Source of the DNA: Candidatus Aenigmatarchaeota archaeon
Lineage (GTDB): Archaea > Aenigmatarchaeota > Aenigmatarchaeia > GW2011-AR5 > JAHLMP01
Length of the DNA stretch: 64,000 nucleotides
Direction of reading: 5' to 3'
Assembly (NCBI GenBank): GCA_018920315.1
Contig: JAHLMP010000001.1
Span: 68,206 to 132,205, forward strand
Of this stretch, positions 8,267-56,657 are shown one piece after another (position 1 is the first letter of the stretch; every line of letters starts with the position of its first letter). Under the pieces are notes generated by a model. That model searched no databases. It saw nothing but the letters and a program-made list of their open reading frames with translations, and was not told where the DNA came from. The position numbers and the translations under genes are program-made.

Positions 8267-8747
8267 AAATTTCTTTATGTTTCATTAATCTTTCAAATGT
8301 TTCATTTAGACTTTCTGACATAACCTTAGTTTTTGAAACTACTTCCATAAAGCCAAAATCTGTTTTAAATCTAGGAACAATATGAATATGCAAATGATTC
8401 TCAATAGAAGCTCCACTATATTTTCCCATATTTATACCGATATTAAAACCTGTTGGCTTTAAAGAAATTCTTAGAATTTTTATACATCTCTTTACAATGG
8501 CAAAAAGCTTTTTTATCTCCTCATCGCTTAAATCATCAATACTTTTAATATGTTTAACCGGTGCTACCATCAAATGACCTGTATTATAAGGAAAGGTATT
8601 CATCATAACAAGAACATCTTTATCTTTGAATAGAATTTTTGCTTTTTCCTTGCCTATAGCAACTTTGCAGAATAAACAACCTTTATATCTTCTCTTCTTT
8701 TCTTCAAGCCATTTCATTCGATTTGTAAAAATCCAACTCTCTATCAT
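8241..8747 (-). CDS. HIT (histidine triad) family nucleotide hydrolase/transferase
   Basis: The histidine triad HLHIHIVPR is present, and the 168-aa length fits. Confidence 0.85.
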   Translation of the reverse strand: MIESWIFTNRMKWLEEKKRRYKGCLFCKVAIGKEKAKILFKDKDVLVMMNTFPYNTGHLMVAPVKHIKSIDDLSDEEIKKLFAIVKRCIKILRISLKPTGFNIGINMGKYSGASIENHLHIHIVPRFKTDFGFMEVVSKTKVMSESLNETFERLMKHKEIFEKDEENE

Positions 8748-8779
8748 AAAATCAACTTATGAAAATTCTCTTTCATATT

Positions 8780-10525
8780 TTATTTGCCTGCTCCTTTCAA
8801 ATATTTTCTAATTTCCTCTTCAACAATCTCACTCTCTGCTTTATTTTTTACTTTACTCATCACTGCTCCTAGTAATCTTTTAACATCTTTCTCATTAGTA
8901 TTTATGATTGTTTCCTTTATTATTCTTCTTATTTCTTCAATTGGCATTAACTCATATTTCTTCTCTATTTCTTCAAAGTTATTTCCATGGGCAAGCTCTA
9001 TAATAATCTCTCGTATAGCCTTTTTCGAAATCTTACCTTTCTCAATAGCATCAAAAATTTTTTCCAATTCTTTCTCATCTATTTTTTCTATATCTATTCC
9101 TTCTCTTCTTAACTCGGTAAAAGTAGATGTAAATGTTATAGAAGCTATCCTAATGGTTCTCTCGCTCTTATTTTTAATTATCTTTTCAAATAGCGGGAAA
9201 TATTTTGAAATTACCAATTGCTCTGCTATATCATTTCCTATAATCTTTTCCATTTCTTTTTTCCTTTCCAATAGACTTTTTATTCTCTTTGGTTTTGGCC
9301 AATTAGCTATTGGTAATAGATCTGTCTCTGGGTACATTCTCGCAGAACCTGGTAATGGTCTTGCATAACTTGTTGTTGCATTTTCATTTGGTCTTCTTGT
9401 TTCTTCTGGCACGCCAATTCTAAGATATTCAACTCTATTTTTAATCTCTTCTATTGCCCTTCTAGCTTCTAGGCCATGAGTTACAATTATTATATCATTT
9501 GATCCAATTTCAAAATTTTTTTCTATCTTTGAAAATATTTCTTTATTTTTTTCATCGTTCAAAAAATTTGAATATAAATCACAATTGTAAACCCCACCAT
9601 AGTCAAGAAGCTCATCTAACAAAATTTTTTTCTCGCATAAAATTCTTTGAGCAAATCTTTCAAAATTCTTAACAAAAAGAATATGCATTTCATCGATCTC
9701 TCTTATATTAACATCTATTTTTTGATTTCTTAACTCTTCTCTTATATCAAGTAAACTAACTTGTCTTTTTATTTCATTTTCTATTAACTTATCTAAACTT
9801 CTGAGCTCTTGCCAACCTTTTATTTCAACTCTAGCCCCTTTGGCTATAGAGATGTTAACATCTTGTCTTATGCTTCCTATCCCTCTTTTTACATTAAATG
9901 TTCTAAGAAAAATTCCCAAATCCTTTGCAATCCTTTTAGCATCTTCAGGATTTTTTATATCGGGTTCTGTTCCTATCTCTATTAGAGGGATTCCTAACCT
10001 AGAAAGAGAATAATACACGTATTTACCTTCTTGCTTTATTGGCTTTGCTGAATCTTCTTCTAGGCACAATGATTTTATTCTTATTCCATTAAATTTTGCA
10101 GGTCCCAAGCCAACTAGTAATGTTCTTTGAAAGCTTGTTATTGCCGAGCCATCTAACACGATCTTTCTCATTATATGAAGCTCGTGCGGGACCCATAGCT
10201 CTAAGTTATGTGCAATATTTATTGCTATTTCTAAAGCATCTTTATTTATTTCATGAGGTGGTTCTTCATCTAAATCTACTAAGCAGCACTCATCCTCATA
10301 ACCATAATAAATAAACTCTCTGTTTCTAAAAAACTCAAAAAGAGCTGCTCTATCTACTTCCCCGAGTTCAGAGACAACTGGTCTTAACTTTCTTTTAACT
10401 TCATAAATAAGGTTATCTTCTCTCATTTCAGAAGAGCAAGAACAAAACAATTTTTTTGTATTTAGCTGTTGATGTATTTCAAGTCCAATTTTGACGTTTA
10501 ATTTCTCATAATCCAAGCTTTCCAT
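8780..10525 (-). CDS. gatE: Glu-tRNA(Gln) amidotransferase subunit E
   Basis: The N-terminus KIGLEIHQQLNTKKLFCSCS is typical of GatB/E. The 581-aa length with an internal insertion fits archaeal GatE. Confidence 0.85.
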   Translation of the reverse strand: MESLDYEKLNVKIGLEIHQQLNTKKLFCSCSSEMREDNLIYEVKRKLRPVVSELGEVDRAALFEFFRNREFIYYGYEDECCLVDLDEEPPHEINKDALEIAINIAHNLELWVPHELHIMRKIVLDGSAITSFQRTLLVGLGPAKFNGIRIKSLCLEEDSAKPIKQEGKYVYYSLSRLGIPLIEIGTEPDIKNPEDAKRIAKDLGIFLRTFNVKRGIGSIRQDVNISIAKGARVEIKGWQELRSLDKLIENEIKRQVSLLDIREELRNQKIDVNIREIDEMHILFVKNFERFAQRILCEKKILLDELLDYGGVYNCDLYSNFLNDEKNKEIFSKIEKNFEIGSNDIIIVTHGLEARRAIEEIKNRVEYLRIGVPEETRRPNENATTSYARPLPGSARMYPETDLLPIANWPKPKRIKSLLERKKEMEKIIGNDIAEQLVISKYFPLFEKIIKNKSERTIRIASITFTSTFTELRREGIDIEKIDEKELEKIFDAIEKGKISKKAIREIIIELAHGNNFEEIEKKYELMPIEEIRRIIKETIINTNEKDVKRLLGAVMSKVKNKAESEIVEEEIRKYLKGAGK

Positions 10526-39983: not shown

Positions 39984-41945
39984 TTAGCTTGTTAATGTCC
40001 CATTTGCATATAGCTTTATAAAGTAACCTGCATTTCTATTTACTTGCCATGCCTCACCAGGATTCATCCTTCTCTCAGAAATCTTCCATGTATTTCTCCA
40101 GAGCTCTGCGCGGCAATGATCAACTATGTAGAGCGTTGAATTAAGGGTAAAGTTGAATGGACAAGTTACTCTCCAACTCTGTGCCACAAGCAATTCTGTT
40201 GTTCCGTCATGCGTTACTTCTGGTTCACAGTCTGCTTTGCAGCTTGTTGGTGTTTCCCCCTTTTCCCACTCACAAATACCATTACCACAATGCTCTTCCC
40301 ATGGTTCTGGTTGCTGCTCGCTTAAGCATTGATAAAATGGATTGAATGTTGCCATTGAGCAACTCAAAACTTTTTGTATAAATTTCTGAATTATTTCAAG
40401 CTTGGCCCAAATTCCCTGAACTTCTCTATCTATTTTTGTTTTCCATTCATCAATTTCTTTATTATAATCTTCTATTTTTTCTATCTTTTGCTCTATTGTA
40501 TTTATTTTATTTTGCATATCCTCTACTTTCTCTCTCAAAGCTTTGAAATCAGCTCCCAAATGCTTAAACCTATTTTGCTTTGAAACATCTCTTGCAATCG
40601 CCCAAACTCCTTCGCTCGTAACTTCATCATATTCTTCTATGTCGAACCATCCTTCTGATGTTTGATTAACTATGAGCCATGTTGCTGCTTTTGCTGCTTT
40701 TTCATCTTCTCCCAACATCTCTAGAACCATTTTTGCATATGCTGTTGTTTGTGCATCTGGTGTATTTGGGTTACTTTCATCAGTCGGCCACCATCCTTCT
40801 TCTCTTTGTCCATTGATCAATTTTTCCTTTGCTAAGTTTACCAAATCTGTATATTTTCCTGTTGTTTGCATAGCTTCTATTATTCCTACAAGTCCAAGGT
40901 AATAATAAGTTATTGTATTATCGTTTATATCAAAATATCCTCCGCCTATTTTCTCTTTCATCAATTCTGCCATTGCATCTGCTTCTAATCTATAATCTAT
41001 TCCCGGATATTCGCTTAGTTTGTAGAGCGCTACTATCCAATCTCCTACATCCCAAAGAGCGACAGCATTTATTCCTTGAGATTGTCTTAAATTAAAAATC
41101 TCATTAGCAATTGCTCTGGCTCCTTTTATAGGGTCTGTAGGATTAAAACAATTTCTTTTACCTTCGTATCTTTGCTTTGCTAGATTTGCTATCATATCAT
41201 CATTTTTCAATAATGCGAGATGTGCTAAGAATAATATGTCCTTGTTGCTATCACATCCACTATTACTTTCAGTCCCAGGAGAATAACAAGTAAGTCCTGT
41301 TTCAGCGCAGGCTGAATTATAAGTTGGTGCGTGTGTCTTTATATACTGCAAAGACTTTTCCATTGCTTGCATGTAATCTTCATCTTCTGTAATCTTGTAA
41401 GCATAGTAGAGTCCCATGGAAGTTACTCCTGCCAAATTTGTGCAGGAAGGGCTTCCCTTAGGCCAACCCCAACCTCCATCAGAGTTCTGATTATTTATTA
41501 ATCTATCAGCTCCTTTGATAATTGATTGTGTTGCATTCAATTGTGTCGAGGAATACTCAACAAAAACTATTGTTGTATAATATCCTATCGGATTCTCTGG
41601 ATAAATTGTGAAAGTTGTTGTATAAATTCTACATTTCGCTGTGTTTGGATTTTCTTTTATACATTCTCCTGTAGTTGTTTGTCCTAATGCTTTCAAAATA
41701 AAAGATGTGCCATTTGGATAGAAAACTCTTGCTTTTACAATCGCATTATTTAAATTTGCTACATCATCCGGATCGCAAACCAAAGCACAAACTCTTACCT
41801 CTGTTCCATGAATATCTGAAAATGTTTCTGTAACTATTTGATTATTTACAACTTCCCACTTTGAAGCTACATAAGGTATATTATCCGCTATCGCTATAGA
41901 TGATATTAGAAGCAAACCTAAAAATAGTTCAAATATCTTTTTCAT
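39984..41945 (-). CDS. 653-aa secreted protein: beta domain + prenyltransferase/terpenoid-cyclase-like alpha-alpha toroid repeats + coiled coil + conserved C-terminal domain
   Basis: A signal peptide; repeats NQNSDGGWGWPKG, GQREEGWW and NQTSEGWF; a coiled coil; and the C-terminal CRAELWRNTWKISERRMNPGEAWQVNRNAGYFIKLY, shared with the 419-aa protein. Confidence 0.65.
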   Translation of the reverse strand: MKKIFELFLGLLLISSIAIADNIPYVASKWEVVNNQIVTETFSDIHGTEVRVCALVCDPDDVANLNNAIVKARVFYPNGTSFILKALGQTTTGECIKENPNTAKCRIYTTTFTIYPENPIGYYTTIVFVEYSSTQLNATQSIIKGADRLINNQNSDGGWGWPKGSPSCTNLAGVTSMGLYYAYKITEDEDYMQAMEKSLQYIKTHAPTYNSACAETGLTCYSPGTESNSGCDSNKDILFLAHLALLKNDDMIANLAKQRYEGKRNCFNPTDPIKGARAIANEIFNLRQSQGINAVALWDVGDWIVALYKLSEYPGIDYRLEADAMAELMKEKIGGGYFDINDNTITYYYLGLVGIIEAMQTTGKYTDLVNLAKEKLINGQREEGWWPTDESNPNTPDAQTTAYAKMVLEMLGEDEKAAKAATWLIVNQTSEGWFDIEEYDEVTSEGVWAIARDVSKQNRFKHLGADFKALREKVEDMQNKINTIEQKIEKIEDYNKEIDEWKTKIDREVQGIWAKLEIIQKFIQKVLSCSMATFNPFYQCLSEQQPEPWEEHCGNGICEWEKGETPTSCKADCEPEVTHDGTTELLVAQSWRVTCPFNFTLNSTLYIVDHCRAELWRNTWKISERRMNPGEAWQVNRNAGYFIKLYANGTLTS

Positions 41946-46070: not shown

Positions 46071-47276
46071 TCAACTCACCCTTCCATAAAGTTTGATATA
46101 ATATCCAGCTCCTCTATTCACAACCCAGCTTTCTCCAACTTGCATTATTCTTTCAGATACATACCAAGAATTTCTCCAAAGCTCTGCTCTGCAGTTTATT
46201 ATCGTGTAAGTAACTCCATTATAATTGAATGTAGAAGGACAAACAACGCTCCAATTCTCAGTTATGAAAATCTCAGTAGGATTAGTAGGTATTGTGGTTG
46301 TTGTGCTTTGACTTATCGTAGTGGTTGTTGTTTGTCCAGGAACTGTAGTAGTTTGTTGAATTGTTGTGGTTGATGATGTAGTAGTTGTTGAAGTAGTAGG
46401 TATTGTGGTTGTTGTGGTTATAGGAGAGTTACAAATTGAAAAGCTATGAACAGAGCAGATAGCAAGCTTTATTAAATTAACAAGATTTTCTAAGAAGCTT
46501 AATCTTGATCTTGTATCTTCTAAACAATTCCAAAGAGTTTCTGCTTTGAAGCTGCTTGAAGACCAATTAGAATAATATTTGCCATCGTAAGCTCTAACTC
46601 TCCAATAATATTTTACGCCCTCGCTTATTGGGATTTTTATCGAAGTGTTAGGAACAATTCCTTTATCTAAAATAATAGAAAAATCGCTGTACTTGCTTAT
46701 CTCATATTGATAAGCAATAATACTACTATCTTGATCACTTGCCTGGCTCCAAGAAAGTATTGCATAGTTTCTACAAATCCTTTCATTGTTTGAAGGGCTT
46801 ATTATACTAGGTTGAGAAGGAGCCTTGCTATTGTTAGAATTTCCTAAATAGTTTGGATTGATATTTACAATTGTTTCCATACTTAAGCTTATTGTTCCAT
46901 CATTTGCTGTGGCTATTATCTTACCGCTTCTTGAGATTGCATCAGAAAGTATTATATAAAGCGTTACATTCTTTGATTCTCCTGCATCTAATTCAAATTC
47001 TCTCTCAGATAGATGAACAAAATCTTTTATGTTATCAGTAACGCTTAATGTAATTCTTTCAGGAATGCTTCCTGGATTCCCATATCTTAATTGATGAGAA
47101 ACAATTGTTAATTCTCCCACTTTAACATTAGGATTAGAAACAACATTATAAGGAATTGAAAGCTCTGCAGCATAAGAATTTGAGAATAGAAATGAGATTA
47201 TTAATATTAAGATTAACCTTCTTACATTTTTTACTAAATTTTCATATTCTATTTCTCTAATTTTTACCATTTTCAT
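46071..47276 (-). CDS. ~400-aa secreted protein: beta-sandwich + FN3-like + Thr-rich linker + conserved C-terminal domain
   Basis: The track start at 47330 is TTG; the ATGs at 47276/47270 precede the signal peptide LILILIISFLFSNSYAAE. It has the FN3-like PSQPSIISPSNN...YYWRVRAYDGKY, a TTTTIPTTSTTTTSSTTT linker, and the C-terminal CRAELWRNSWYVSERIMQVGESWVVNRGAGYYIKLY. Confidence 0.7.
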   Translation of the reverse strand: MKMVKIREIEYENLVKNVRRLILILIISFLFSNSYAAELSIPYNVVSNPNVKVGELTIVSHQLRYGNPGSIPERITLSVTDNIKDFVHLSEREFELDAGESKNVTLYIILSDAISRSGKIIATANDGTISLSMETIVNINPNYLGNSNNSKAPSQPSIISPSNNERICRNYAILSWSQASDQDSSIIAYQYEISKYSDFSIILDKGIVPNTSIKIPISEGVKYYWRVRAYDGKYYSNWSSSSFKAETLWNCLEDTRSRLSFLENLVNLIKLAICSVHSFSICNSPITTTTTIPTTSTTTTSSTTTIQQTTTVPGQTTTTTISQSTTTTIPTNPTEIFITENWSVVCPSTFNYNGVTYTIINCRAELWRNSWYVSERIMQVGESWVVNRGAGYYIKLYGRVS

Positions 47277-47379
47277 CAGCTTTTTAATTTTAAATCTCAA
47301 ATTTACGCCAAAAGGTTTGAAATTTTTCAAAAAACAAAAAAGAAAAAATCAAAAAATTCTTTTTAGTTTTCTATTTACT

Positions 47380-48459
47380 TTACACTGCCTTACCAATTAT
47401 GTATATCTTTCCGCTGTCGAATGTTCCTATGCATGGTATTGGATATTGAATCTTGAATTCTATCTCTAGCAATCCTCCATTTGTTAGTATGTGCTCTAGT
47501 ACATCGTCATCATCATCTGGATCTGGCATAGGCACTGGAAGACCTCCGTAGCATGTTGGTCCTTTATACTCGGTTGAAACATCGCACATACTATTGGTGT
47601 TAGTATCATTCCAATAGTCGGATGTTAAATTATTTCCTACATTGCATCCATCGTTCTGGTTGTATTTGCTCATGTTTGTCCATCCCTGCCAGCTCTGCCA
47701 TGAAGTGCCTGACCATGCCCTGTACCACATGTATTTTTCTATTTCAAGAACATTGCTTGTTGGACACTTCGCTGCTCCAGTTGTGTCAAACAAATCAGTA
47801 CCTGCTATGAAAGTAAATAGGTTAACTCCTCCTTCTGCTGTGTTCTTTACCTTAATCTTGTTCAAGGAGTGAGCAACTCTTGTTACTGGATCCATAGGAC
47901 CAAATCTTATTGGTTGGCCATCACTTGTTGTAACTTGCATTCTCAACTCTGGGTTAAAGAACCACTCTTCGCTGTGCGTTGCGCTTGTTGCTACATTCTG
48001 AGAGTTGAAGACCTTCAAAAGAACTTCCATCGGACCATGCCAACTGTCTTCAACTGTTATTATTATCTTGAATCTCTTGTCTGTAGTGCTATTAACACGT
48101 CCAAGCCCGTCACAAAATATATTACCTAATGATATTTCGCTCGCCAAAGCCTCCTCATGTCCTCCGACAAAGGCCTTTACAAAGCCTATGTCTAATGCTC
48201 CGTTAGGGTCTCTTACTATAACATCATATATTATTCTCTCTCCTGTAAATGCATAAAGACTAGTTCTCCAATCCAATGGGTTAACCCCCGGTGGATTTGC
48301 TTGTGTTCCTATTTCTATATCTCTGTGATAAATACATATCGTTGGTGGCAAGTCGCCTGGCTGTGCTGATACTCCAACATCGCCAACAACTACATCAGCA
48401 AAAGCAGGCACTACTAGTAACAAACTTGCTAGTATCGCGAATAAAGCAAACTTTTTCAT
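47380..48459 (-). CDS. 359-aa secreted protein, paralog of the 447-aa protein
   Basis: Signal peptide FAILASLLLVVPAFA, and alignment with 42863..44206 over its whole mature length. Confidence 0.7.
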   Translation of the reverse strand: MKKFALFAILASLLLVVPAFADVVVGDVGVSAQPGDLPPTICIYHRDIEIGTQANPPGVNPLDWRTSLYAFTGERIIYDVIVRDPNGALDIGFVKAFVGGHEEALASEISLGNIFCDGLGRVNSTTDKRFKIIITVEDSWHGPMEVLLKVFNSQNVATSATHSEEWFFNPELRMQVTTSDGQPIRFGPMDPVTRVAHSLNKIKVKNTAEGGVNLFTFIAGTDLFDTTGAAKCPTSNVLEIEKYMWYRAWSGTSWQSWQGWTNMSKYNQNDGCNVGNNLTSDYWNDTNTNSMCDVSTEYKGPTCYGGLPVPMPDPDDDDDVLEHILTNGGLLEIEFKIQYPIPCIGTFDSGKIYIIGKAV

Positions 48460-48643
48460 TTCTCCACCTTACTCCTTTGGGTATTTACTTCTACTTGGCG
48501 CTTAGGGCAAAGCTTACAGAAAGATTTAAAAATGTTACTTCCTAATAGTAAATAATGCCCTAAGCGCCGAGCAGAGCAAGGCTCTCCAACGGATGCCTTG
48601 TTATAGCGCCCCTCCTCGGCGCTCTCCTTGAGAAAGGAGTATG
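48460..48643 (-). promoter_or_regulatory. GC-rich structured leader element, copy C (184 nt, abuts ATG of 359-aa gene)
   Basis: Same length and register as copy A. It has a perfect 12-bp inverted repeat GGCGCTTAGGGC/GCCCTAAGCGCC around an AT-rich 48-nt loop. Confidence 0.6.
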
Positions 48644-49230
48644 ATTTTTGAGAAATTTCGCAAAGGTTTTGCTCTTTCATTAATTCAAAAGAGCTATTCC
48701 CTGATAATTTTATTAAAGAATCGCTAAAACTTTGCGCCCCTCTTCCAATATTTTGCAACCTAGTAGCGATAAACATCATAATGAATACCTAACTATTAAC
48801 ATTTAAAATATTTACTACCTATACGTGAGTAATACAAACGCATTACATGTTACAATTGTAATGCGGTAAATTTTTGAGTATATTTGAAAATATTTTTATT
48901 ACTTTTAGATAATTACTTATGCTCTAAGAATTATCAATGAGAATTATCGAAAAGATTTTTAAGAGATTTTCTATAATTCTTGAGATTGCTATTTAGCTTT
49001 TTGGTAGGAGAAATAAGAGGTGGATTGAAGGACAGAGAAGAAGTGGAAAAGAATTATTAGCAAGGAAAATATTAAAAGCTCTGAAAAATGCATATTGCGA
49101 GCGATTGCCAAAGATTGGTATTATGGGAAAAGAATTTACCTTTTATCAAGTTTAGTTATATTCTTTATTCTCCCTATCTTAAACGGTATCTTAAATAATT
49201 ATGCAATCATGTAATTTTGAATTTTTATAA

Positions 49231-50526
49231 TCATTTTGAGCGATCTATTAGTAACCATTTCCAGAGAGGCGAGCATTTTATTTTCTTGCCGTTAATTTTG
49301 AGATCGTCTTCATAATCCCATGTAATTATCAAAAGATTTTTACAGCGTAAAAGCTTGCTCGCTTTTAGTAAAGCTTTGAGCTCTCGTTTCTCTATCTCAT
49401 CTTTTGCGCTAGCGTAAGTTACTTGAATCAATTGCTTAACTCTCAAGCCCTCTTTCAAGACAAAATCAACTTCGTTTTGTTGATAATCTTTCCAGTAGAA
49501 AATTTCTAGAGCATTAGAGAAGTAGCTTTTCCTTCTTAAAAGTTCTACTGCAACTACATTCTCAATTATCTTGCCAATGTCTTCTGACAATTTAAAGCCT
49601 ATAGCATTTACTATTCCTGTATCATTACAATAAACCTTTTTTGGTGCAATAAATTGTTCTTTTAGTTTTGGAGAAAACCTATTAATTATCTTTATAAGAT
49701 AAGCTTCTTCCATCCCATCTATCCAATCTTTTATAGTGTGCAAATCTTTTATTTCAAATATATTTTTCAATTTGGAGAGTGTTATTTCACAAGAAGAGTT
49801 TGATATGAGATACTTTGCAACCTCTTTAAATATAGATTTTTTCTTTATTTTTAGCCTTCTTATAATATCTTTCTCAACTATGTCTGAGAATATTCTTACT
49901 ATAATTTCCCTTCCAAGTAAATAAGCTTCTGGAAGACCGCCTATCCTTAAATAATCGTTAAGACTCTTCTTTACTAATGCTATACTCTTAGTTGAATAAA
50001 GATATTCTTTGCCAATTGCTACATTGTTATAATTTAAAAATTCATAGAAACTAAATGGAAATAAAGTGAAGTCTATATATCTTCCTGTTAATCTACTTGC
50101 AAGTTCTCCTGAAAGCAATCTTGAATTGCTTCCAGTTAATATTATTTTTTTCGTTCTTCTCAGCCTATTAACAAAAAGCTCCCAGTTATCGATATTATGT
50201 GGCTCATCAAGAATTATATGATCCACTTCTCCATATAATTCGTAAAAGCTTTGCAATAACTTTTCAAAATCTCTTGCATGAAATTCAGCTAATCTTTCGT
50301 CATCAAAATTTATGTACCCATAATTTGTCCCTTCAAAAATTTGCAATGAAAAAATGGATTTGCCACATCTTCTAATCCCTAAAACTACTAGTATATTTGG
50401 CGCAGAAAGATATTTTCTAAGCTTGCTTTTATCAACCTCTCTTTCAATTATCTTTGTTTTTTCAAACTTCTCTTTTATCTCTTCCCTTTGAGCTATTACA
50501 ACCCTTTTAATTTCCTCGGTTTCCAT
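49231..50526 (-). CDS. AAA+ ATPase with DUF4143-type C-terminal domain (COG1373-like), paralog 1
   Basis: Walker A GIRRCGKS, Walker B IILDEPHNI, and the C-terminal NEVDFVLKEG...KQLIQVTYA (PD-(D/E)xK-like pattern). Confidence 0.8.
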   Translation of the reverse strand: METEEIKRVVIAQREEIKEKFEKTKIIEREVDKSKLRKYLSAPNILVVLGIRRCGKSIFSLQIFEGTNYGYINFDDERLAEFHARDFEKLLQSFYELYGEVDHIILDEPHNIDNWELFVNRLRRTKKIILTGSNSRLLSGELASRLTGRYIDFTLFPFSFYEFLNYNNVAIGKEYLYSTKSIALVKKSLNDYLRIGGLPEAYLLGREIIVRIFSDIVEKDIIRRLKIKKKSIFKEVAKYLISNSSCEITLSKLKNIFEIKDLHTIKDWIDGMEEAYLIKIINRFSPKLKEQFIAPKKVYCNDTGIVNAIGFKLSEDIGKIIENVVAVELLRRKSYFSNALEIFYWKDYQQNEVDFVLKEGLRVKQLIQVTYASAKDEIEKRELKALLKASKLLRCKNLLIITWDYEDDLKINGKKIKCSPLWKWLLIDRSK

Positions 50527-50527
50527 G

Positions 50528-50572
50528 ATATTATATTCACAAACATTTTTAAAAAGTTTGTGAATATAATAT
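50528..50572 (-). promoter_or_regulatory. palindromic promoter/operator of paralog 1
   Basis: Perfect 17-nt arms ATATTATATTCACAAAC / GTTTGTGAATATAATAT flank ATTTTTAAAAA. The centre is 24 nt upstream of the ATG at 50526. Confidence 0.55.
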
Positions 50573-50597
50573 AATGTATTCCTTATCTTTTCATCAT

Positions 50598-51923
50598 TTA
50601 TCTAGGTAAAAGTAGCCATTTCCAAAGAGGTAAGCATTTTATTTTCTTTCCTTTAACTTTAATCTCGTCTTCATAATCCCATGTAATTAAAAGCAAATCC
50701 TTGCATTTCAGCTCATTGCTCGCTTTTATCAAAGCTTTTATTTCTCTTTTTTCAATCTCATCTTTACTTGAAGCGTAAGTTACTTGAATGAGTTGTTTAA
50801 TTTTTAGTCCCTCTTTTAAAACAAAATCTACTTCGTTTTGTTGATAATCTTTGAAGTAAAAAATTTCTGAATTATTGTATAAGTAATTTTTTCTTCTCAG
50901 GAGCTCTATAGCAACACAATTCTCCATTATCCTACCTAAGTTTTCCATAAACCTAAATCCAAGTAAAGTAAAGAAAGATATATCCATTAAGTAAACTTTT
51001 TTTGGAGATTTTTCTTGCGTTTTAACACTGAAAGAAAATCTTTTTATAAATTCGACCATTCTAACAATTTGAAAGTACTTCACGAATCTTTCTGTAGTTT
51101 TCAAGGGGGTTTCTAAAGTTTTACTAATATTTCTAATGTTTACTAAAGAAGATGGATTTGAAATTAGAAATCTTCCAATTGCTCTTAAATATTCATCTGC
51201 CCTTATCTTATATCTTTTCTCAATATCCTTAATAATAATTGTTTCCCAATAGCTCTCTACTATTCTTTTTCTTTTCTCCTCGTTCTTTTCTAAAACAATT
51301 TCAGGAAACCCTCCAATTTTTAGATACTCGATTATTAATTTTTTAAATAAGGAAGATTTCAAAAGAATATCTCTTTCAGAAATCTCAATATTGTTAAAAA
51401 TAAGAAATTCCTTAAAGCTAAGAGGAAGTATTTCAAAATTTATACATCTACCGGCTAAAATAGACTCAAACTCTTCTGCCATTAATTTTGCGCTACTTCC
51501 AGAAATAATTATATTTGCCTCGTTTCTTTCATGCAAACTTCTAACAAACATTTCCCAAAATTTAACTTCCTGAATTTCATCAAGAATAATTAATGGCTTT
51601 CCTTTTGGTTGAATAAACTCTTTATAAGCTTCATAAACATTAATCAAAAAATCTTTATTCAAGTTTGTTGGAAATTTCATTTCCTCGAAGTTTACATATA
51701 GTACGTTAGATGAGTCCTTTAATTTAGAAATCTCTTTGGCTATTTGCCTTAAGATATAAGATTTTCCAGACCTTCTTATTCCAAAAATGCTGATTATTTT
51801 ATTAACTCCTTCTAAACTAGAAAGAATTTCTTGAGTATATAAATCTCTCTTTATTCCAGTTTCTATTCCTTCGCCCCAAAAATTCCAACTCGAAAGAATT
51901 TCTATTATCTTCATCTTTTCCAT
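50598..51923 (-). CDS. AAA+ ATPase/DUF4143-type, paralog 2
   Basis: Walker A GIRRSGKS, Walker B IILDEIQEV, and the conserved C-terminus NEVDFVLKEGLKIKQLIQVTYA. Confidence 0.8.
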   Translation of the reverse strand: MEKMKIIEILSSWNFWGEGIETGIKRDLYTQEILSSLEGVNKIISIFGIRRSGKSYILRQIAKEISKLKDSSNVLYVNFEEMKFPTNLNKDFLINVYEAYKEFIQPKGKPLIILDEIQEVKFWEMFVRSLHERNEANIIISGSSAKLMAEEFESILAGRCINFEILPLSFKEFLIFNNIEISERDILLKSSLFKKLIIEYLKIGGFPEIVLEKNEEKRKRIVESYWETIIIKDIEKRYKIRADEYLRAIGRFLISNPSSLVNIRNISKTLETPLKTTERFVKYFQIVRMVEFIKRFSFSVKTQEKSPKKVYLMDISFFTLLGFRFMENLGRIMENCVAIELLRRKNYLYNNSEIFYFKDYQQNEVDFVLKEGLKIKQLIQVTYASSKDEIEKREIKALIKASNELKCKDLLLITWDYEDEIKVKGKKIKCLPLWKWLLLPR

Positions 51924-51930
51924 AAGTTAT

Positions 51931-51966
51931 TATATGACACAAAAATATATAAATTTGTGTCATATA
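51931..51966 (-). promoter_or_regulatory. palindromic promoter/operator of paralog 2
   Basis: Perfect 13-nt arms TATATGACACAAA / TTTGTGTCATATA flank AATATATAAA. The centre is ~25 nt upstream of the ATG at 51923. Confidence 0.55.
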
Positions 51967-52095
51967 TTAACCTTATTTATAAATAAAATCTAAAACTATC
52001 AGACGTAATTTCTTAGAGATATTTTCAGAGATCTTAAAATCTTAGTGTCATATTAATCCCGTAGCCAAAAATATTTAGATCTGAAATATTAAGCT

Positions 52096-53367
52096 CTAAG
52101 TTAGTAACCATTTCCAGAGAGGCGAGCATTTTATTTTCTTGCCGTTAATTTTGAGATCGTCTTCATAATCCCATGTAATTACAAGCAAATCCTTGCATTT
52201 AAGCTCTTTGCTTGCTTTGAGCAAGGCTTTGAGCTCTCGTTTCTCTATCTCATCTTTTGCGCTAGCGTAAGTTACTTGAATCAATTGCTTAACTCTCAAG
52301 CCCTCTTTTAAAACAAAATCAACTTCGTTTTGTTGGTAATCCTTCCAGTAGAAAATCTCAAGCAGAGCATTAGTTGCCTGTCTTCTCTTCAATTCTAAGA
52401 AAACACTGTTTTCCATGCTCCTTCCAATATTCTCTGAAAATCTTGAATATTTTTTAATGAAAAATGTATCCACCAACATAACTTTTCTTGGAGCTTTTAA
52501 TCTATACTTTATTTTTGGTGAGAAAATCTCAACAAAATAAGCGAATAATGATGTTTCTAAGTAATAAATATAGTTAGCAAGAGTGCTTTTTCCAATCTTA
52601 TATCCTAAAGACTGAAATGTGTTATACAAGCTGCTTATTGTTATATAAGTTGAATTTAGAAGAATTCTTACCAATTCTCTTACAAGTTCTCTATTTCTAA
52701 TCCTATACCTTTCTAAAATATCTCTTATTAAAAAAGTTTTGAAATACTCTTCGATCAATAAATATTTCTTTCCTTTTTCAGAAAGTACTATCTCTGGCAA
52801 ACCACCAAAATTTATGTATTCATTTAGCAAATTCAGAATTAAAGGCTCGCTTAACTTCTCTAATTCTTCATTTCTGAATTTTAAAAATTCTTTGAATGAA
52901 AGTGGGTAAAGCTCTATAGTTAAACATCTTCCCCTTAGCTCTGTTGGTATCTCTTTGCTAGAAAGTTTGGATGAAGAACCAGAAATAAAAATTTGATAAT
53001 TTCTTGTATCTAAAATTCTTCTAACCCATTTGCTCCAATTTGGAATATTTTGAATTTCATCTAGCAAAAGAATTAACCTCTTTCTTCCATACTCTTCTTT
53101 GAGCACTTCACTCAAATATGTAAGAGTTTTTATATCTTGTGGTATTCTTTCGTCCTCAAAGTTTATGTATAGAGTTTCTTCTTTTTTCATCTTCTTTGCT
53201 ATCCAAAACAAAAGAAAGGTTTTGCCAGTTCTCCTAAATCCTATTATAGGTATTGTTTTTATTACATTCCAATCTATGAATGCTGTCGGATCTACACATC
53301 TTTCTATTATTGGAGGTAATTCCCTTTCTCTCCACTCCTTCACTAAACTTTTTAATGTTTGTTTCAT
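52096..53367 (-). CDS. AAA+ ATPase/DUF4143-type, paralog 3
   Basis: Walker A GFRRTGKT and Walker B LLLDEIQNI. The track start at 53388 is TTG and lies inside the promoter palindrome. The ATG at 53367 (MKQTLKSLVKEW...) aligns with the other paralogs. Confidence 0.78.
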   Translation of the reverse strand: MKQTLKSLVKEWRERELPPIIERCVDPTAFIDWNVIKTIPIIGFRRTGKTFLLFWIAKKMKKEETLYINFEDERIPQDIKTLTYLSEVLKEEYGRKRLILLLDEIQNIPNWSKWVRRILDTRNYQIFISGSSSKLSSKEIPTELRGRCLTIELYPLSFKEFLKFRNEELEKLSEPLILNLLNEYINFGGLPEIVLSEKGKKYLLIEEYFKTFLIRDILERYRIRNRELVRELVRILLNSTYITISSLYNTFQSLGYKIGKSTLANYIYYLETSLFAYFVEIFSPKIKYRLKAPRKVMLVDTFFIKKYSRFSENIGRSMENSVFLELKRRQATNALLEIFYWKDYQQNEVDFVLKEGLRVKQLIQVTYASAKDEIEKRELKALLKASKELKCKDLLVITWDYEDDLKINGKKIKCSPLWKWLLT

Positions 53368-53377
53368 AATGTATTTA

Positions 53378-53411
53378 TCATAGTACAAAAATAAATATTT
53401 TTGTACTATGA
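53378..53411 (-). promoter_or_regulatory. palindromic promoter/operator of paralog 3
   Basis: Perfect 16-nt arms TCATAGTACAAAAATA / TATTTTTGTACTATGA with a 2-nt spacer. The centre is ~27 nt upstream of the ATG at 53367. Confidence 0.55.
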
Positions 53412-53518
53412 GAAAAATTTTGATGAAAGATCATTTACCTCTTTCAAATTTATGGAATATAGGCTCAACTCTTTACCAACATAAACTTTATAAAAACTTT
53501 ACCATAATAACAAAACAC

Positions 53519-54811
53519 TTAATACTTCGTTACCTTGTCTTTCAAAAACCACTTCCACAATGGCAAGCATTTTATTTTCTTGTCTTTAATTTTGATTTCA
53601 TTTTCATAATCCCATGTAATTACAAGCAAATCCTTGCATTTAAGCTCTTTGCTTGCTTTGAGCAAAGCTTTGAGCTCTCGTTTCTCTATCTCATCTTTTG
53701 CGCTAGCGTAAGTTACTTGAATCAATTGCTTAACTCTCAAGCCCTCTTTTAAAACAAAATCAACTTCATAATCATTTGAGTTGAAGTAAAATATCTCGTT
53801 AATTTTTCCTTCGAATTTTTTCTTCAAGAGTTGAATGGCTACTAAGTTTTCAATTTTTTTCCCAATATCTCTTGAGAATCTCGGCTCAATCCCAAAATAA
53901 ACATTATCAACTAAATAAACCTTAGCAGGGTATTGTGCTCTTTCACTATACTTTAGAGAAAATCTCTTCACAGGAAAAACAAAAAGAGCTTCTTCTACGT
54001 ACCTTAAGTAATTTGCTAAAGTCTTTTTACTAATTTTAAAACCAAATGATTTGAGTGAATTCTCAATTTTTGATATTGAAACATAAGAGGAAGAATTTGT
54101 TATACAATATCTGACAAAATAATCCATAAGTGCTATATTTTTAATTTTGAATCTTTCTATCAAGTCCTTGAAGAATATTGTAGCAAAATAAGTTCTTGCA
54201 ATTTCAAGTTTTTTATTTTTATCATCAGCCAAAAGAATTTCTGGATACCCGCCAAATTCAACATAATCTTTCAAAAGCCTTAAAATTTCTCCAGTTTTTG
54301 CTTCAGAAAATTCTTTTTCAATTTTGAATTTTTTAATTTCGAGAAATTCTCTGAAGTTGAAAGGAAAAATTATAAAAGAAATACATCTTCCTCTCAGCTC
54401 TGTTGAAATTTCTTTGCTTAAAAGTTTTGAAGAAGAGCCAGAAATTATTATTTTATATTTTTGAAGATTGTGTAAAGCTCTTATAAAAGAAGACCAGTTC
54501 TCAAGCTCTTGAATTTCATCTAAGAAAAGAAAGATCTTGCCTTCAAATAAGGAATTCACTTCTTTCAAAAATTCGGAAATCCCAACTTTTTTTGTTCTTG
54601 GATCAGTAAAATCCACGTAAACAACATTTTCTTTGCTGAATTTCTTCTCAAAAAGCTCTTTTATGAGTTGAAACATGAAGTAAGTTTTTCCTGCTCTTCT
54701 TGGTCCTATTATTGAAGCTATATGATTATTCATCCAAAATTTTATCTCTCTTTTAACTATGTTTTGTGGTAGCTCTTTCTCTTTCCATTCTAACAAAACT
54801 TCTCTTAACAT
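53519..54811 (-). CDS. AAA+ ATPase/DUF4143-type, paralog 4
   Basis: Walker A GPRRAGKT and Walker B LFLDEIQEL. The track start at 54877 extends through the promoter palindrome. The ATG at 54811 (MLREVLLEWKEKELP) matches the paralog N-termini. Confidence 0.78.
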   Translation of the reverse strand: MLREVLLEWKEKELPQNIVKREIKFWMNNHIASIIGPRRAGKTYFMFQLIKELFEKKFSKENVVYVDFTDPRTKKVGISEFLKEVNSLFEGKIFLFLDEIQELENWSSFIRALHNLQKYKIIISGSSSKLLSKEISTELRGRCISFIIFPFNFREFLEIKKFKIEKEFSEAKTGEILRLLKDYVEFGGYPEILLADDKNKKLEIARTYFATIFFKDLIERFKIKNIALMDYFVRYCITNSSSYVSISKIENSLKSFGFKISKKTLANYLRYVEEALFVFPVKRFSLKYSERAQYPAKVYLVDNVYFGIEPRFSRDIGKKIENLVAIQLLKKKFEGKINEIFYFNSNDYEVDFVLKEGLRVKQLIQVTYASAKDEIEKRELKALLKASKELKCKDLLVITWDYENEIKIKDKKIKCLPLWKWFLKDKVTKY

Positions 54812-54821
54812 AAAAGAAATA

Positions 54822-54854
54822 TAGGAAACAAAAATATATATTTTTTGTTTCCTA
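54822..54854 (-). promoter_or_regulatory. palindromic promoter/operator of paralog 4
   Basis: 13-nt arms TAGGAAACAAAAA / TTTTTGTTTCCTA flank TATATAT. The centre is 27 nt upstream of the ATG at 54811. Confidence 0.55.
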
Positions 54855-54983
54855 CAGGGAAATATAACTATATACACAAATATTCGAATATTTATATATC
54901 AAAATGCAAATTGATATTAAAAACATTCTACTATCGAAGCTATTACTTAAAATACGTGAAATTATAAAAATTGTGCGCTATCT

Positions 54984-56243
54984 TCAACTTAAAAGCCACT
55001 TCCATAAAGGCTTGAAAACAATTCTTTTATTCTTAACTTTAATCTCGTCTTCATAATCCCATGTAATTACAAGCAGATCCTTGCACTTCAGCTCTTCACT
55101 TGCTTTGAGCAAAGCTTTTATTTCCCTTTTTTCTATCTCATCTTTACCGGAAGCATAGGTTACTTGAATTAATTGCTTTATTTTCAACCCTTCCTTCAAA
55201 ACAAAATCAACTTCCCCACTCAAAGCACTAAAATAATAAATTTCACAATTCTTAAACCTTCTTTTAAGTTCAAGAAAGACAACATTTTCCATCAACTTCC
55301 CCCAGTCTGTAGAAAATCTTGGAGAAAAGAATTTTATTAAACCATTATCCACGACATAAACTTTTTTCTGTGTTTTTATAGTTTCTTTTACTTTTCTTTC
55401 AAACTTTTCAACAGAAAAAATCAAGAAAACGTCTTCCAACATTTTTACAAACTCTATTACAGTATTTTTTGAAATTTTAATCCCAGAAGATGTTAATATG
55501 TTTTGCAGCTTGGAATAAGTGTAGTAAGAAGAAAAATTTGAAACTAAAACTTTTGTCAAGAATTCGAGTGTCTTAATTTTTTTCACTTTAAACCTTTCAA
55601 CTATATCCTTGTAAAAAACACCATCTTTTATCGAAATTAGTAAATCTTGATGAAGATGTGGCTTAAGAACAGTTTCTGGAAAACCTCCTTTTTCAATATA
55701 TTCGTTTAGCATTTTAAGCAAAACCCCCCTTTCGGTATAAATTGAAAACTTATCTTCTTCAAATCTCTTAGCTCTGAGAAATTCCTTGAAAGAAAAAGGA
55801 AAAACAAAAACACCTATAGCTCTCCCCCTTAATTGAGTGGCAATTTCTTTGCTCAAAAGCTTTGAAGAAGAACCTGTGAGAAAAATTCTATAACCTCTGT
55901 CATAAAGTTCTCTAATACCAATTGGCCAATCTTTCACAACTTGTATTTCATCCAAAAACAAATTTTTTGGTTTTTCTCCATAAAGTTCTTGATATGCAGT
56001 AATCATATCATTGAAATTTTTGGCAGACGCACCAATTAGGTTTCCTCTTTCAAAGTTTATGAAAAGACAATCTTTCTTACCCATTTCCTTAATTTTTTGA
56101 TAGAGCAAGTAAGTTTTTCCACTTCTTCTAGGCCCAACTATTGTTACAAGATTATGCTCAGGAATTTCTATTTCCCTTTCTACCAAATCAGGAAGTTCAT
56201 ATTTTTCGAATTCTGCTATAGCCGCCTTGAATTCCTCTTTCAT
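54984..56243 (-). CDS. AAA+ ATPase/DUF4143-type, paralog 5
   Basis: Walker A GPRRSGKT and Walker B LFLDEIQVV. The track start at 56264 is TTG inside the palindrome, so the ATG at 56243 (MKEEFKAAIAEF) is preferred. Confidence 0.78.
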   Translation of the reverse strand: MKEEFKAAIAEFEKYELPDLVEREIEIPEHNLVTIVGPRRSGKTYLLYQKIKEMGKKDCLFINFERGNLIGASAKNFNDMITAYQELYGEKPKNLFLDEIQVVKDWPIGIRELYDRGYRIFLTGSSSKLLSKEIATQLRGRAIGVFVFPFSFKEFLRAKRFEEDKFSIYTERGVLLKMLNEYIEKGGFPETVLKPHLHQDLLISIKDGVFYKDIVERFKVKKIKTLEFLTKVLVSNFSSYYTYSKLQNILTSSGIKISKNTVIEFVKMLEDVFLIFSVEKFERKVKETIKTQKKVYVVDNGLIKFFSPRFSTDWGKLMENVVFLELKRRFKNCEIYYFSALSGEVDFVLKEGLKIKQLIQVTYASGKDEIEKREIKALLKASEELKCKDLLVITWDYEDEIKVKNKRIVFKPLWKWLLS

Positions 56244-56250
56244 AATGTAT

Positions 56251-56290
56251 AGTATAGTGGACAAATATTTAAATTTTTGTCTAATATACT
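56251..56290 (-). promoter_or_regulatory. palindromic promoter/operator of paralog 5 (imperfect)
   Basis: 15-nt arms AGTATAGTGGACAAA / TTTGTCTAATATACT (2 mismatches) flank TATTTAAATT. The centre is ~27 nt upstream of the ATG at 56243. Confidence 0.45.
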
Positions 56291-56296
56291 ATTAGG

Positions 56297-56395
56297 TTAT
56301 TTTTCCAAAAGCCACTTCCATAAAGGCTTGAAAACAATTCTTTTATTATTCACTTTAACTTCATCTTTGTACTTCCATCTCGATCTCATAAGATA
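56297..56395 (-). pseudogene. 3'-terminal remnant of a sixth ATPase paralog
   Basis: Reverse translation gives ...RWKYKDEVKVNNKRIVFKPLWKWLLEK*, which matches the last ~30 aa of paralog 5 (VKNKRIVFKPLWKWLLS). The nucleotide string ccacttccataaaggcttgaaaacaattcttttatt is identical to that around 54995-55030. No upstream ATPase body is present. Confidence 0.7.
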
Positions 56396-56657
56396 CTTTT
56401 AGCGCAAAGCCCCTAAAAAATTAAACTATCAACAAATTCTAGAATTGCATGTGAATCAAAAAATATATGTTGTCAATTAAATTTCTACTTATCTCTTTTA
56501 CAATTCTTCTCTTTTTCTCTGAGTTGTAAAAATCTTATAGTAAGCTAGACTTATAGTCACCATGAAATTAAATTATTATAAAAATTTTGAAAATTTTCAA
56601 ATATTTAAAATCTCATTTGCAAAACAATACATGAATAAAACTTATTTTATATTCGAT

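Follow-up and report, generated by a model that had tools for sequence, protein, structure and literature searches.

PDC-S01, an ATPase fused to a PD-(D/E)xK domain, is reported as the fourth commonest candidate defence gene in prokaryotes and as enriched in Archaea; DPANN lineages are enriched in PDCs generally (PMC12988326). It was proposed by 'guilt-by-embedding' in the original PDC preprint, in which PDCs are candidates only. DUF4143/COG1373, the family of its C-terminal part, is listed as PD-(D/E)XK family #100, with its function unassigned there (PMC3424549). Here we describe a head-to-tail array of genes of this kind, five intact (g1 to g5) and a sixth reduced to a 3' stump, at 49231-56407 on the minus strand of a 64,000-nt stretch of DNA (the window) from a Candidatus Aenigmarchaeota (DPANN) metagenome-assembled genome (MAG) of a hot-spring archaeon. 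By their sequences the genes are further members of a known, uncharacterised candidate-defence family; what appears to be new, against the literature found, is the array organisation, in which distinct heads under purifying selection, probably with a promoter each, are joined to a constrained tail that evolves in concert and mediates turnover. The head is defined as residues 1 to ~347, comprising the AAA+ core, the lid, a winged helix and alpha1-beta1 of the nuclease-like domain; the tail is the last 76 codons, from beta2 (EVDFV) of the PD-(D/E)xK-fold domain to the C-terminus.

The locus resembles PDC-S01 as described in its AAA_14 and DUF4143 architecture, its full-length matches to the model PDLC04787 and its membership of a family abundant in Archaea, and differs from it in having arrays of distinct types, a homogenised C-terminal module and type-specific palindromes. 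The literature found contains no description of distinct-type tandem arrays, a genome-homogenised C-terminal module or type-specific promoter palindromes for PDC-S01. McrBC also combines an AAA+ motor with a PD-(D/E)xK nuclease, and the tail domain finds its best structural match in McrC (6ut7_G, E 4.9e-4, query-normalised TM-score (TMq) 0.57); however, McrBC consists of two proteins with a GTP-specific AAA+ part and a canonical motif, whereas the window genes each encode one polypeptide, which includes a winged helix and reads Q-V-T in strand beta3. SSO1545 of the Arch_ATPase family (PF01637) and Orc1/Cdc6 share the AAA+ core, helical lid and winged helix (2fna, E 1.7e-8; 2v1u; 2qby) but lack a nuclease-fold domain.

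Two further comparisons concern the mode of evolution. Plant resistance (R) gene clusters hold diverged paralogs that evolve by unequal crossover and gene conversion. By analogy, the array may be likened to plant nucleotide-binding leucine-rich repeat (NLR) clusters and to the Avs sensors among the signal transduction ATPases with numerous domains (STAND), in that an ATP-dependent switch ATPase is combined with a variable recognition part and a conserved output part. NLR resistosomes and Avs4 lie near the window ATPase part in Foldseek searches, a resemblance to STAND proteins at the general level of AAA+ and winged helix-turn-helix only. Unlike them, the window proteins are AAA_14, ORC/Cdc6-like ATPases without a repeat-type sensor domain and are not members of those families, and what is conserved and exchanged in them amounts to no more than half of the C-terminal domain. 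Rhs and contact-dependent inhibition (CDI) polymorphic-toxin loci, with their orphan tips, and phase-variable hsdS genes recombine at a constant segment. As in these systems, a constant segment common to adjacent genes would be the recombination substrate, and the stump at 56297-56407 is like their orphan pieces. The polarity in the window is reversed, though, with a constant 3' end and a variable 5' 80% of the gene; the copies are full-length with predicted promoters of their own, and no invertase or recombinase lies nearby.

Organization of the array

The five genes, of 419-441 aa, lie on one strand and share one architecture, as the original prediction, made from the letters alone, had proposed. 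The ATG starts were chosen as the likeliest and agree with public gene calls.

49231-50526, minus strand: g1, 431 aa, head type '1'; AAA_14 E 1.9e-31, DUF4143 E 3.4e-23, PDLC04787 E 1e-101
50598-51923, minus strand: g2, 441 aa, head type '17'; Pfam and PADLOC matches
52096-53367, minus strand: g3, 423 aa, head type '2'; Pfam and PADLOC matches, AlphaFold2 model
53519-54811, minus strand: g4, 430 aa, head type '3'; start according to the public gene call and the sequence
54984-56243, minus strand: g5, 419 aa, head type '5'; Pfam and PADLOC matches
56297-56407, minus strand: remnant of a sixth copy, 'X', last ~34 codons with one internal in-frame stop; tblastn E 4e-7

No further family copies were found in the window beyond the five genes and the stump. 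The product of g3 is identical to the public NCBI protein P0001 (Candidatus Aenigmarchaeota MAG), which occurs on five contigs, and the five-gene arrangement has been assembled independently in at least two NCBI assemblies.

The AAA+/DUF4143 assignment made in that prediction is borne out by profile searches. AAA_14 (PF13173) was matched in all five genes (E 1e-31 to 1e-35, 109-122 bits; gathering score 27), as was DUF4143 (PF13635)/COG1373, C-terminal to the ATPase (E 1e-15 to 1e-23, 57-83 bits; gathering score 28.1). The PADLOC PDC-S01 model PDLC04787 matches all five over their full length (E 1e-99 to 1e-106, ~400 of 412 profile positions). The Walker A motif G.RR.GK(S/T) and the Walker B motif (I/L/F)LDE(I/P)(Q/H) are present in every copy as had been described, and G43, R45, R46, G48, K49, D103 and E104 do not vary among the five copies and 85 homologs. 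The Pfam match to DUF4143 stops at beta2 (EVDFV), the exact start of the shared tail. An NCBIfam profile search of the genes returned nothing significant, a PDB sequence search found no homolog, Pfam ATPase_2 matches were below threshold, and among the STAND profiles the sole match was nSTAND_NTPase5 in g2, whose 17 bits fall short of the cut-off of 34.

Distinct heads and homogenised tails

The two best-conserved peptides of the tail were used to scan GTDB representative genomes; this gave 304 relatives, from which 76 loci were kept (cited here as L001 and so on). They come mostly from hot-spring archaeal MAGs of Aenigmatarchaeota, Brockarchaeota, Thermoproteota, Methanophagales, Thermoplasmatota and Nanoclepta.

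The heads of the five window copies are 0.31-0.40 identical to each other at the amino acid level, and the best external orthologs of these heads are 72-99% identical:

g1 head: orthologs in L038, L026 and L007, 0.75-0.77 identity
g2 head: ortholog in L074, 0.73 (best external)
g3 head: orthologs in L001, L002, L009 and L010, 0.70-0.72
g4 head: ortholog in L023, 0.93, with a tail of only 0.73
g5 head: orthologs in L012 and L028, 0.97-0.99

None of the 82 genes in multi-copy loci has its nearest head in its own genome. The ratio of nonsynonymous to synonymous change (omega) in heads between orthologs has a median of ~0.09 (n=55) and therefore points to purifying, not diversifying, selection. 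Single-linkage clustering at 55% identity sorts 130 members into 39 head types, and 23 of 26 arrays contain no repeated type. Divergence is even across the N-helix, AAA+ core, lid, winged helix and alpha1-beta1 (identity 0.29-0.42, against 0.84 in the tail), and the proportion of synonymous differences (pS) in heads is ~0.65 in all classes of comparison, within locus, within genome and between genomes. The five heads are thereby shown to be different ancient types, each conserved across genomes under purifying selection.

The tails behave otherwise. The last 76 codons are 75-93% identical in amino acids among the five copies, the jump being abrupt at EVDFVLKEGL. The asymmetry between N- and C-terminal parts that had been noted by eye is thus real and abrupt, although the description of the tails as nearly identical was slightly generous for g2 and g5.

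49231-49473, minus strand: g1 shared tail; last ~80 nt identical to g3
50598-50834, minus strand: g2 shared tail; 78-87% amino acid identity to the other tails, pS 0.52-0.66, saturated
52096-52326, minus strand: g3 shared tail; ~160 nt from the EVDF codons essentially identical to g4, pS 0.17
53519-53767, minus strand: g4 shared tail; pS 0.17 to g3 and 0.44 to g1, 0.82-0.89 to the neighbours' tails
54984-55214, minus strand: g5 shared tail; closest tail is the sixth-copy remnant

The same step is found elsewhere. In 191 same-genome paralog pairs outside the window, identity climbs from ~0.3 to ~0.87, with the step precisely on the E of EVDFV; 56 ortholog pairs show the opposite change in this tail block, from ~0.94 down to 0.70-0.86. 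The head/tail pattern recurs in 26 multi-copy loci from many projects. Of the 82 genes, 45 have their closest tail in their own genome, where chance would give 3.8%. The product of g4 illustrates the switch of partners, its head being 0.93 identical to the L023 ortholog while its tail is 0.73 identical to that ortholog and 0.82-0.89 to the tails of its array neighbours. Ortholog pairs with near-identical heads show 5-10 times as much synonymous change in the tail as in the head (pS in head and tail, respectively: g5/L012, 0.04 and 0.43; g5/L028, 0.09 and 0.61; L008/L024, 0.07 and 0.65). Mean tail pS rises from 0.45 within a locus to 0.56 within a genome and 0.72 between genomes; in the window, low tail pS is confined to g1, g3 and g4 (g3-g4 0.17, g1-g3 0.31, g1-g4 0.44), whose tails look recently exchanged and form mosaics of shared tracts in the DNA. 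A Sawyer-type permutation test supports exchange for these three pairs (P<=0.0002 each) and is not significant for the rest.

General conservation does not account for tails 75-93% identical, because the tail is the least conserved part of the wider family. In homologs chosen independently, by full-length similarity to g3, heads 0.35-0.40 identical are accompanied by tails of 0.42±0.04 (maximum 0.50), and both the Pfam model and tblastn alignments end at beta2. The substitution patterns show a tail whose history is decoupled from that of the heads and whose constraint at the protein level is about four-fold stronger. The likeness of the tails is very probably the product of strong purifying selection together with recurrent gene conversion or unequal crossover between co-resident copies. 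The locus is a well-resolved natural case of concerted evolution limited to part of a domain.

An overlapping functional DNA or RNA element in the tail was considered and rejected: a hidden element at the nucleotide level is unlikely because tail pS saturates between genomes, and Rfam and tRNA scans of the window gave no matches. Among 1,549 cluster representatives (50% identity; 319 at E<=1e-10) the tail always stands at the C-terminus, the carriers being fragments or proteins of ~420-445 aa. Many public proteins of 67-150 aa (P0123, P0125, P0133, P0139 and others) consist of the tail only; they may be contig-end fragments or stumps like that at 56297-56407, and if they are stumps, such remnants are a common by-product of array turnover.

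Turnover of gene copies

The remnant of a sixth copy, which had been recognised in the original prediction, gives a tblastn match at 56306-56407 (E 4e-7). Its segment 56307-56378 is 88% identical to the g5 tail at the nucleotide level (72 nt), and it retains its own stop codon at 56297-56299. L028 has an intact copy X (8625-9944) upstream of its g5 ortholog, and the copy X of L012 spans at least 231 aa. L012, a sister genome with 96% nucleotide identity, has the order X-g5-g3 and lacks g4; the junction is placed inside the tail because the g5 tail leads straight into the g4-g3 spacer. Stump X and the g4-less L012 are two examples that show the tail as the site where unequal crossover gains and loses copies.

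Parts of the order are shared between genomes, the head types running [5,3,2,17,1] in the window, [3,2,1] in L007 and [3,1] in L018 and L026. Same-strand tandem arrays of 2-8 copies within ±10 kb are frequent (eight copies in L009, seven in L038, six each in L008 and L024), two relatives carry at least 11 and at least 13 copies over two loci, and close relatives have from 1 to 5 copies in the same neighbourhood. L001 has a single g3-type copy in another position relative to homologs of the 359-aa and 419-aa genes described below, and L002 and L003 have a truncated copy, a g3-type copy and two HEPN/nucleotidyltransferase pairs. Arrays that were ubiquitous and syntenic with housekeeping genes had been named as a finding that would speak against the original prediction; in relatives arrays are common, but neither syntenic nor fixed. 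The array region is a plastic part of the genome.

The truncated copy of L002 (8769-9926; called as 337 aa at 8916-9929) apparently lacks its N-terminus, the hidden Markov model matching from position 34; it stands directly upstream of the g3-type copy, and its tail is 84% identical to that neighbour's tail. Two adjacent family genes in L052 (11262-13945), an Aenigmatarchaeota MAG, have counterparts in L069 (330-3013), an 8.4-kb contig labelled 'WOR-3 bacterium', with heads 96-97% identical and pS of 0.09-0.15; either recent inter-domain transfer or mis-binning would explain the likeness.

Promoter palindromes

Each gene is preceded by its own near-perfect inverted repeat, which ends 1-16 nt before the ATG and surrounds an AT-rich, TATA-like core. 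The individualised promoters that had been suggested earlier take the form of these gene-specific palindromes:

50528-50572, unstranded: g1 palindrome, ATATTATATTCACAAAC-N11-GTTTGTGAATATAATAT, centre ~-23.5; same arm type before g1-type copies in L018, L035 and L080
51926-51971, unstranded: g2 palindrome, TATATGACACAAA...TTTGTGTCATATA, centre ~-25
53374-53415, unstranded: g3 palindrome, TCATAGTACAAAAAT-ATTT-ATTTTTGTACTATGA, centre ~-27; same type in L012 and L011
54820-54856, unstranded: g4 palindrome, TAGGAAACAAAAA-ATATATA-TTTTTGTTTCCTA, centre ~-26.5
56260-56281, unstranded: g5 palindrome, GACAAAAATTTAAATATTTGTC, centre ~-27; identical in L012 and L028

The g4 type of palindrome precedes g4-type copies in L007, L008, L018 and L026, also where the copy is the first of its array, and across genomes each kind of arm goes with its kind of head. 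Within 70 nt upstream, arms of 12 nt or more are found for 28% of 135 family genes and for 2% of 599 other open reading frames (ORFs), and the four longest upstream palindromes of the window all lie in the array. The centres for family genes have a median of -26.5 from the ATG, where TATA would be expected in a leaderless archaeal mRNA. From these features we infer a separate promoter for each gene and, more speculatively, autoregulation of each by its protein's own winged helix acting on its own palindrome.

Two other readings of the palindromes were rejected. As terminators or attC-like 3' elements of the upstream gene they would not be expected before the array-first gene, where they also occur, nor to track the downstream head type and centre at -26; as a general promoter feature of these genomes they fail on the control of 599 non-family ORFs. 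A scan for bacterial sigma-70 promoters and terminators is uninformative for an archaeon.

Predicted structure and putative active site

An AlphaFold2 model of g3, built with 85 homologs, was obtained at high confidence (predicted local distance difference test score (pLDDT) 94, predicted template modelling score 0.92). It comprises an AAA+ core, a helical lid (174-237), a winged helix (244-298) and an alpha-beta-beta-beta-alpha-beta domain (314-421). Full-length Foldseek searches matched SSO1545, Orc1/Cdc6-DNA complexes, NLR resistosomes, Avs4 and clamp loaders, and the model shows the ATPase part as a predicted ORC/Cdc6/STAND-like AAA+ domain. Because these matches were dominated by the AAA+ part, the C-terminal domain was also modelled and searched alone (pLDDT 94.5); it matched McrC of the Thermococcus gammatolerans McrBC system, Can2, the R2 endonuclease, Hjc, DdmD, EcoT38I and NucS, with TMq of at most 0.63. 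Together with the listing of DUF4143 among PD-(D/E)XK families, the model and these matches uphold the nuclease-like fold proposed for the C-terminal block.

The D/E-x-K-like pattern proposed along with that fold does not hold. Strand beta3 reads Q364-V365-T366, a form found family-wide and not the canonical motif; D350 in beta2 and E319, E348 and E378 are invariant, and R377 is nearly so, the positions in the active site being assigned by topology and not by residue-level structural superposition. Distant members with 26-29% identity, plasmid-borne bacterial ones and those from Methanosphaera, read Q/N-V-S/T/A in beta3 and retain the four acidic residues, so that the site is non-canonical throughout the family and not a case of local decay. 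A canonical ExK in the wider family that was lost in this clade is ruled out, since the distant plasmid-borne members read Q-V-S/T/A. Invariant E319, E348 and E378 with near-invariant R377 suggest a putative rearranged site.

Proposed role and alternative explanations

It is proposed that each gene would be transcribed singly as a leaderless mRNA and would probably be autoregulated through its own palindrome. The proteins would be ATP-dependent nucleic-acid-binding switches. Specificity would reside in the head, and the shared tail, with its non-canonical E/ExD/Q/E site, would serve all copies as a module for output or oligomerisation; the array would then mount different specificities on one effector, most plausibly against viruses or other mobile DNA. 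Taken as a whole, evolution and function together, this explanation is the one we consider probable, if by no great distance. The functional part by itself, a battery of specificities on one effector that is probably related to conflict, is tentative and stands somewhat below an even chance. A more far-reaching version, which we regard as doubtful, would see the arrays as a modular immune-receptor repertoire and the archaeal counterpart, by analogy, of plant NLR clusters: dozens of ancient, self-regulated sensor heads (AAA+ with winged helix) would sit on one exchangeable effector tail, the tail would double as the recombination site at which a tiny symbiont genome gains, loses and reshuffles specificities, and co-resident tails would be alike as the paralogs co-assemble or share a target. 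The repertoire appears to matter to these organisms, because arrays occupy an appreciable part of very small DPANN genomes (two relatives carry at least 11-13 copies). The boundary between head and tail marks where the protein may be cut for head-swap chimeras; E319, E348, D350, Q364, R377 and E378 are the residues of interest for mutation, and the cognate palindromes are candidate binding DNA.

Several points weigh against the proposed explanation. A PDC-S01 representative assayed in E. coli B with phages T4, T5 and T7 fell outside the four candidates that protected (PMC12881386), and the family has candidate status only. No known defence gene flanks the array, and PADLOC gave no significant match on ten flanking genes. 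Nuclease activity is uncertain, because the canonical catalytic Lys and the beta3 acid are absent (Q-V-T). As regards the evolutionary part, the Sawyer-type permutation test that supports exchange for g1-g3, g3-g4 and g1-g4 includes no model of rate heterogeneity among sites. The identity of tails between genomes is biased upward because the comparison loci were found by tail peptides, a bias controlled by the independently chosen homolog set (tails 0.42±0.04). Mis-binning is possible because all data are MAGs, as the labelling of L069 as a WOR-3 bacterium illustrates.

The best-surviving rival, which we judge unlikely but live, sees the genes as selfish, addiction-like or accessory to mobile elements, toxin-like modules under autoregulation being one example; recombination and horizontal transfer would maintain and spread them with no immunity benefit to the cell. 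The sole published defence test of PDC-S01, not being among the protective results (PMC12881386), is in keeping with it. So are the variation of copy number and position between close relatives, the occurrence of near-identical heads in different phyla, the prevalence of toxin-antitoxin (TA) and abortive infection (Abi) modules among the neighbours, and the distant members, which are frequent on bacterial plasmids beside integrase, recombinase, transposase, Fic and PIN genes. TA modules under autoregulation typically carry palindromic operators at their promoters, and the promoter palindromes of the array recall these. However, the array lacks an antitoxin-like partner gene and, within the window, has neither an integrase or transposase nor terminal repeats at its flanks; a scan of viral contigs found no relatives. 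The heads are also under strong purifying selection and the arrays avoid redundant types, which fits selection for a diverse repertoire.

Housekeeping DNA-binding ATPases, that is, Orc1/Cdc6-like regulators or transcription factors each with its own regulon, would account for the winged helix, for the best full-length structural matches (SSO1545 and Orc1/Cdc6-DNA complexes) and for the arginyl-tRNA synthetase (ArgRS), GTPase and major facilitator superfamily (MFS) genes on one flank. This is improbable for genes that number from 1 to 5 in the same neighbourhood of close relatives, of which one copy is deleted here and intact in sister genomes, and which fall into at least 39 head types of patchy distribution; a conserved nuclease-fold domain with invariant acidic residues, and the classing of the family as a candidate defence gene from genomic embedding, argue in the same direction.

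Purifying selection alone, without recombination, is a very improbable source of the tail likeness. Constraint there certainly is: tails have a proportion of nonsynonymous differences (pN) of 0.07-0.12 where heads have 0.43, the tails of g2 and g5 keep ~80% amino acid identity to the other tails despite saturated pS (0.52-0.79), and the motif LIQV(T/C/S)Y...RE...ITWDYE...PLWKWLL is widespread. Selection on the protein would not, though, lower tail pS among g1, g3 and g4 to 0.17-0.44 against ~0.65 in heads, give close orthologs more synonymous change in the tail than in the head, or put the nearest tail in the same genome in 45 of 82 cases against 3.8% by chance; and where heads are equally diverged in the independent set, tails of only 0.42 identity are found, the tail being the least conserved part across the wider family.

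Recent tandem duplication, followed by rapid diversification of the heads under positive selection with the tails left ancestral, would give tandem one-strand genes with similar tails and no repeated head types in arrays; it is hardly credible for heads that are 72-99% identical to orthologs elsewhere against 31-40% to array neighbours, with paralog pS saturated, ortholog omega of ~0.09 (purifying) and divergence uniform over all head domains. That mosaic tails and variable copy number are artefacts of short-read assembly or binning (repeat collapse, strain chimeras) comes to mind with MAG contigs throughout, tails that are ~230-nt repeats and one comparison contig labelled bacterial, but is just as remote given the same arrangement in at least two NCBI assemblies, P0001 on five contigs, exact shared tail runs of less than ~100 nt, below typical assembly k-mers and reads, and the pattern in 26 multi-copy loci from many projects.

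Genomic context

The array is flanked on one side by an MFS transporter gene, a 157-aa ORF, a GTPase gene and ArgRS, and on the other by orphan surface-protein genes. The suggested link to defence is upheld in one respect and not in another: all five genes match the PADLOC candidate PDC-S01, but the window is not a recognisable defence island, because 0 of 10 flanking genes has a significant PADLOC match. Among 124 non-family neighbours in 22 multi-copy loci, counted without a baseline, the commonest are HEPN, PIN, MNT, AbiEi/AbiEii and PDC-M05A, with 3-4 members each; the remaining neighbours are housekeeping genes. The recurrence of TA and Abi modules speaks for the proposed explanation as well as for its selfish rival. 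In L002 (7167-8290 and 11630-12425; also in L003 and L004), two HEPN/nucleotidyltransferase pairs (MNT/HepT, PDC-M05-like) bracket the family genes, and none is present in the window neighbourhood. PDC-M05 (nucleotidyltransferase with HEPN), the family neighbour in L002 and L003, was protective in the same E. coli assay (PMC12881386).

Two putative surface-protein genes of 359 aa and 419 aa (46071-48459) stand after the array in the window and before the family gene in relatives (L001 7264-9645; L002 4548-6935). Their products are unevenly conserved, with 73% and 46-49% identity, and no Pfam family matches the 419-aa protein, which contains a long Thr-rich linker. A G+C-rich inverted repeat at 48490-48575, TCTACTTGGCGCTTAGGGCA / TGCCCTAAGCGCCGAGCAGA, with 20-nt arms that are 90% complementary and 46 nt apart, has no Rfam match; it lies inside or beside a 107-aa ORF (48456-48779), in a genome of ~30% G+C. 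Beside the giant surface proteins, a 653-aa protein (39984-41945) with sub-threshold matches only (SQHop_cyclase_N, 23.8 bits against a cut-off of 26.2; PADLOC PbeC, E 3.5e-4) is 59-63% identical in relatives.

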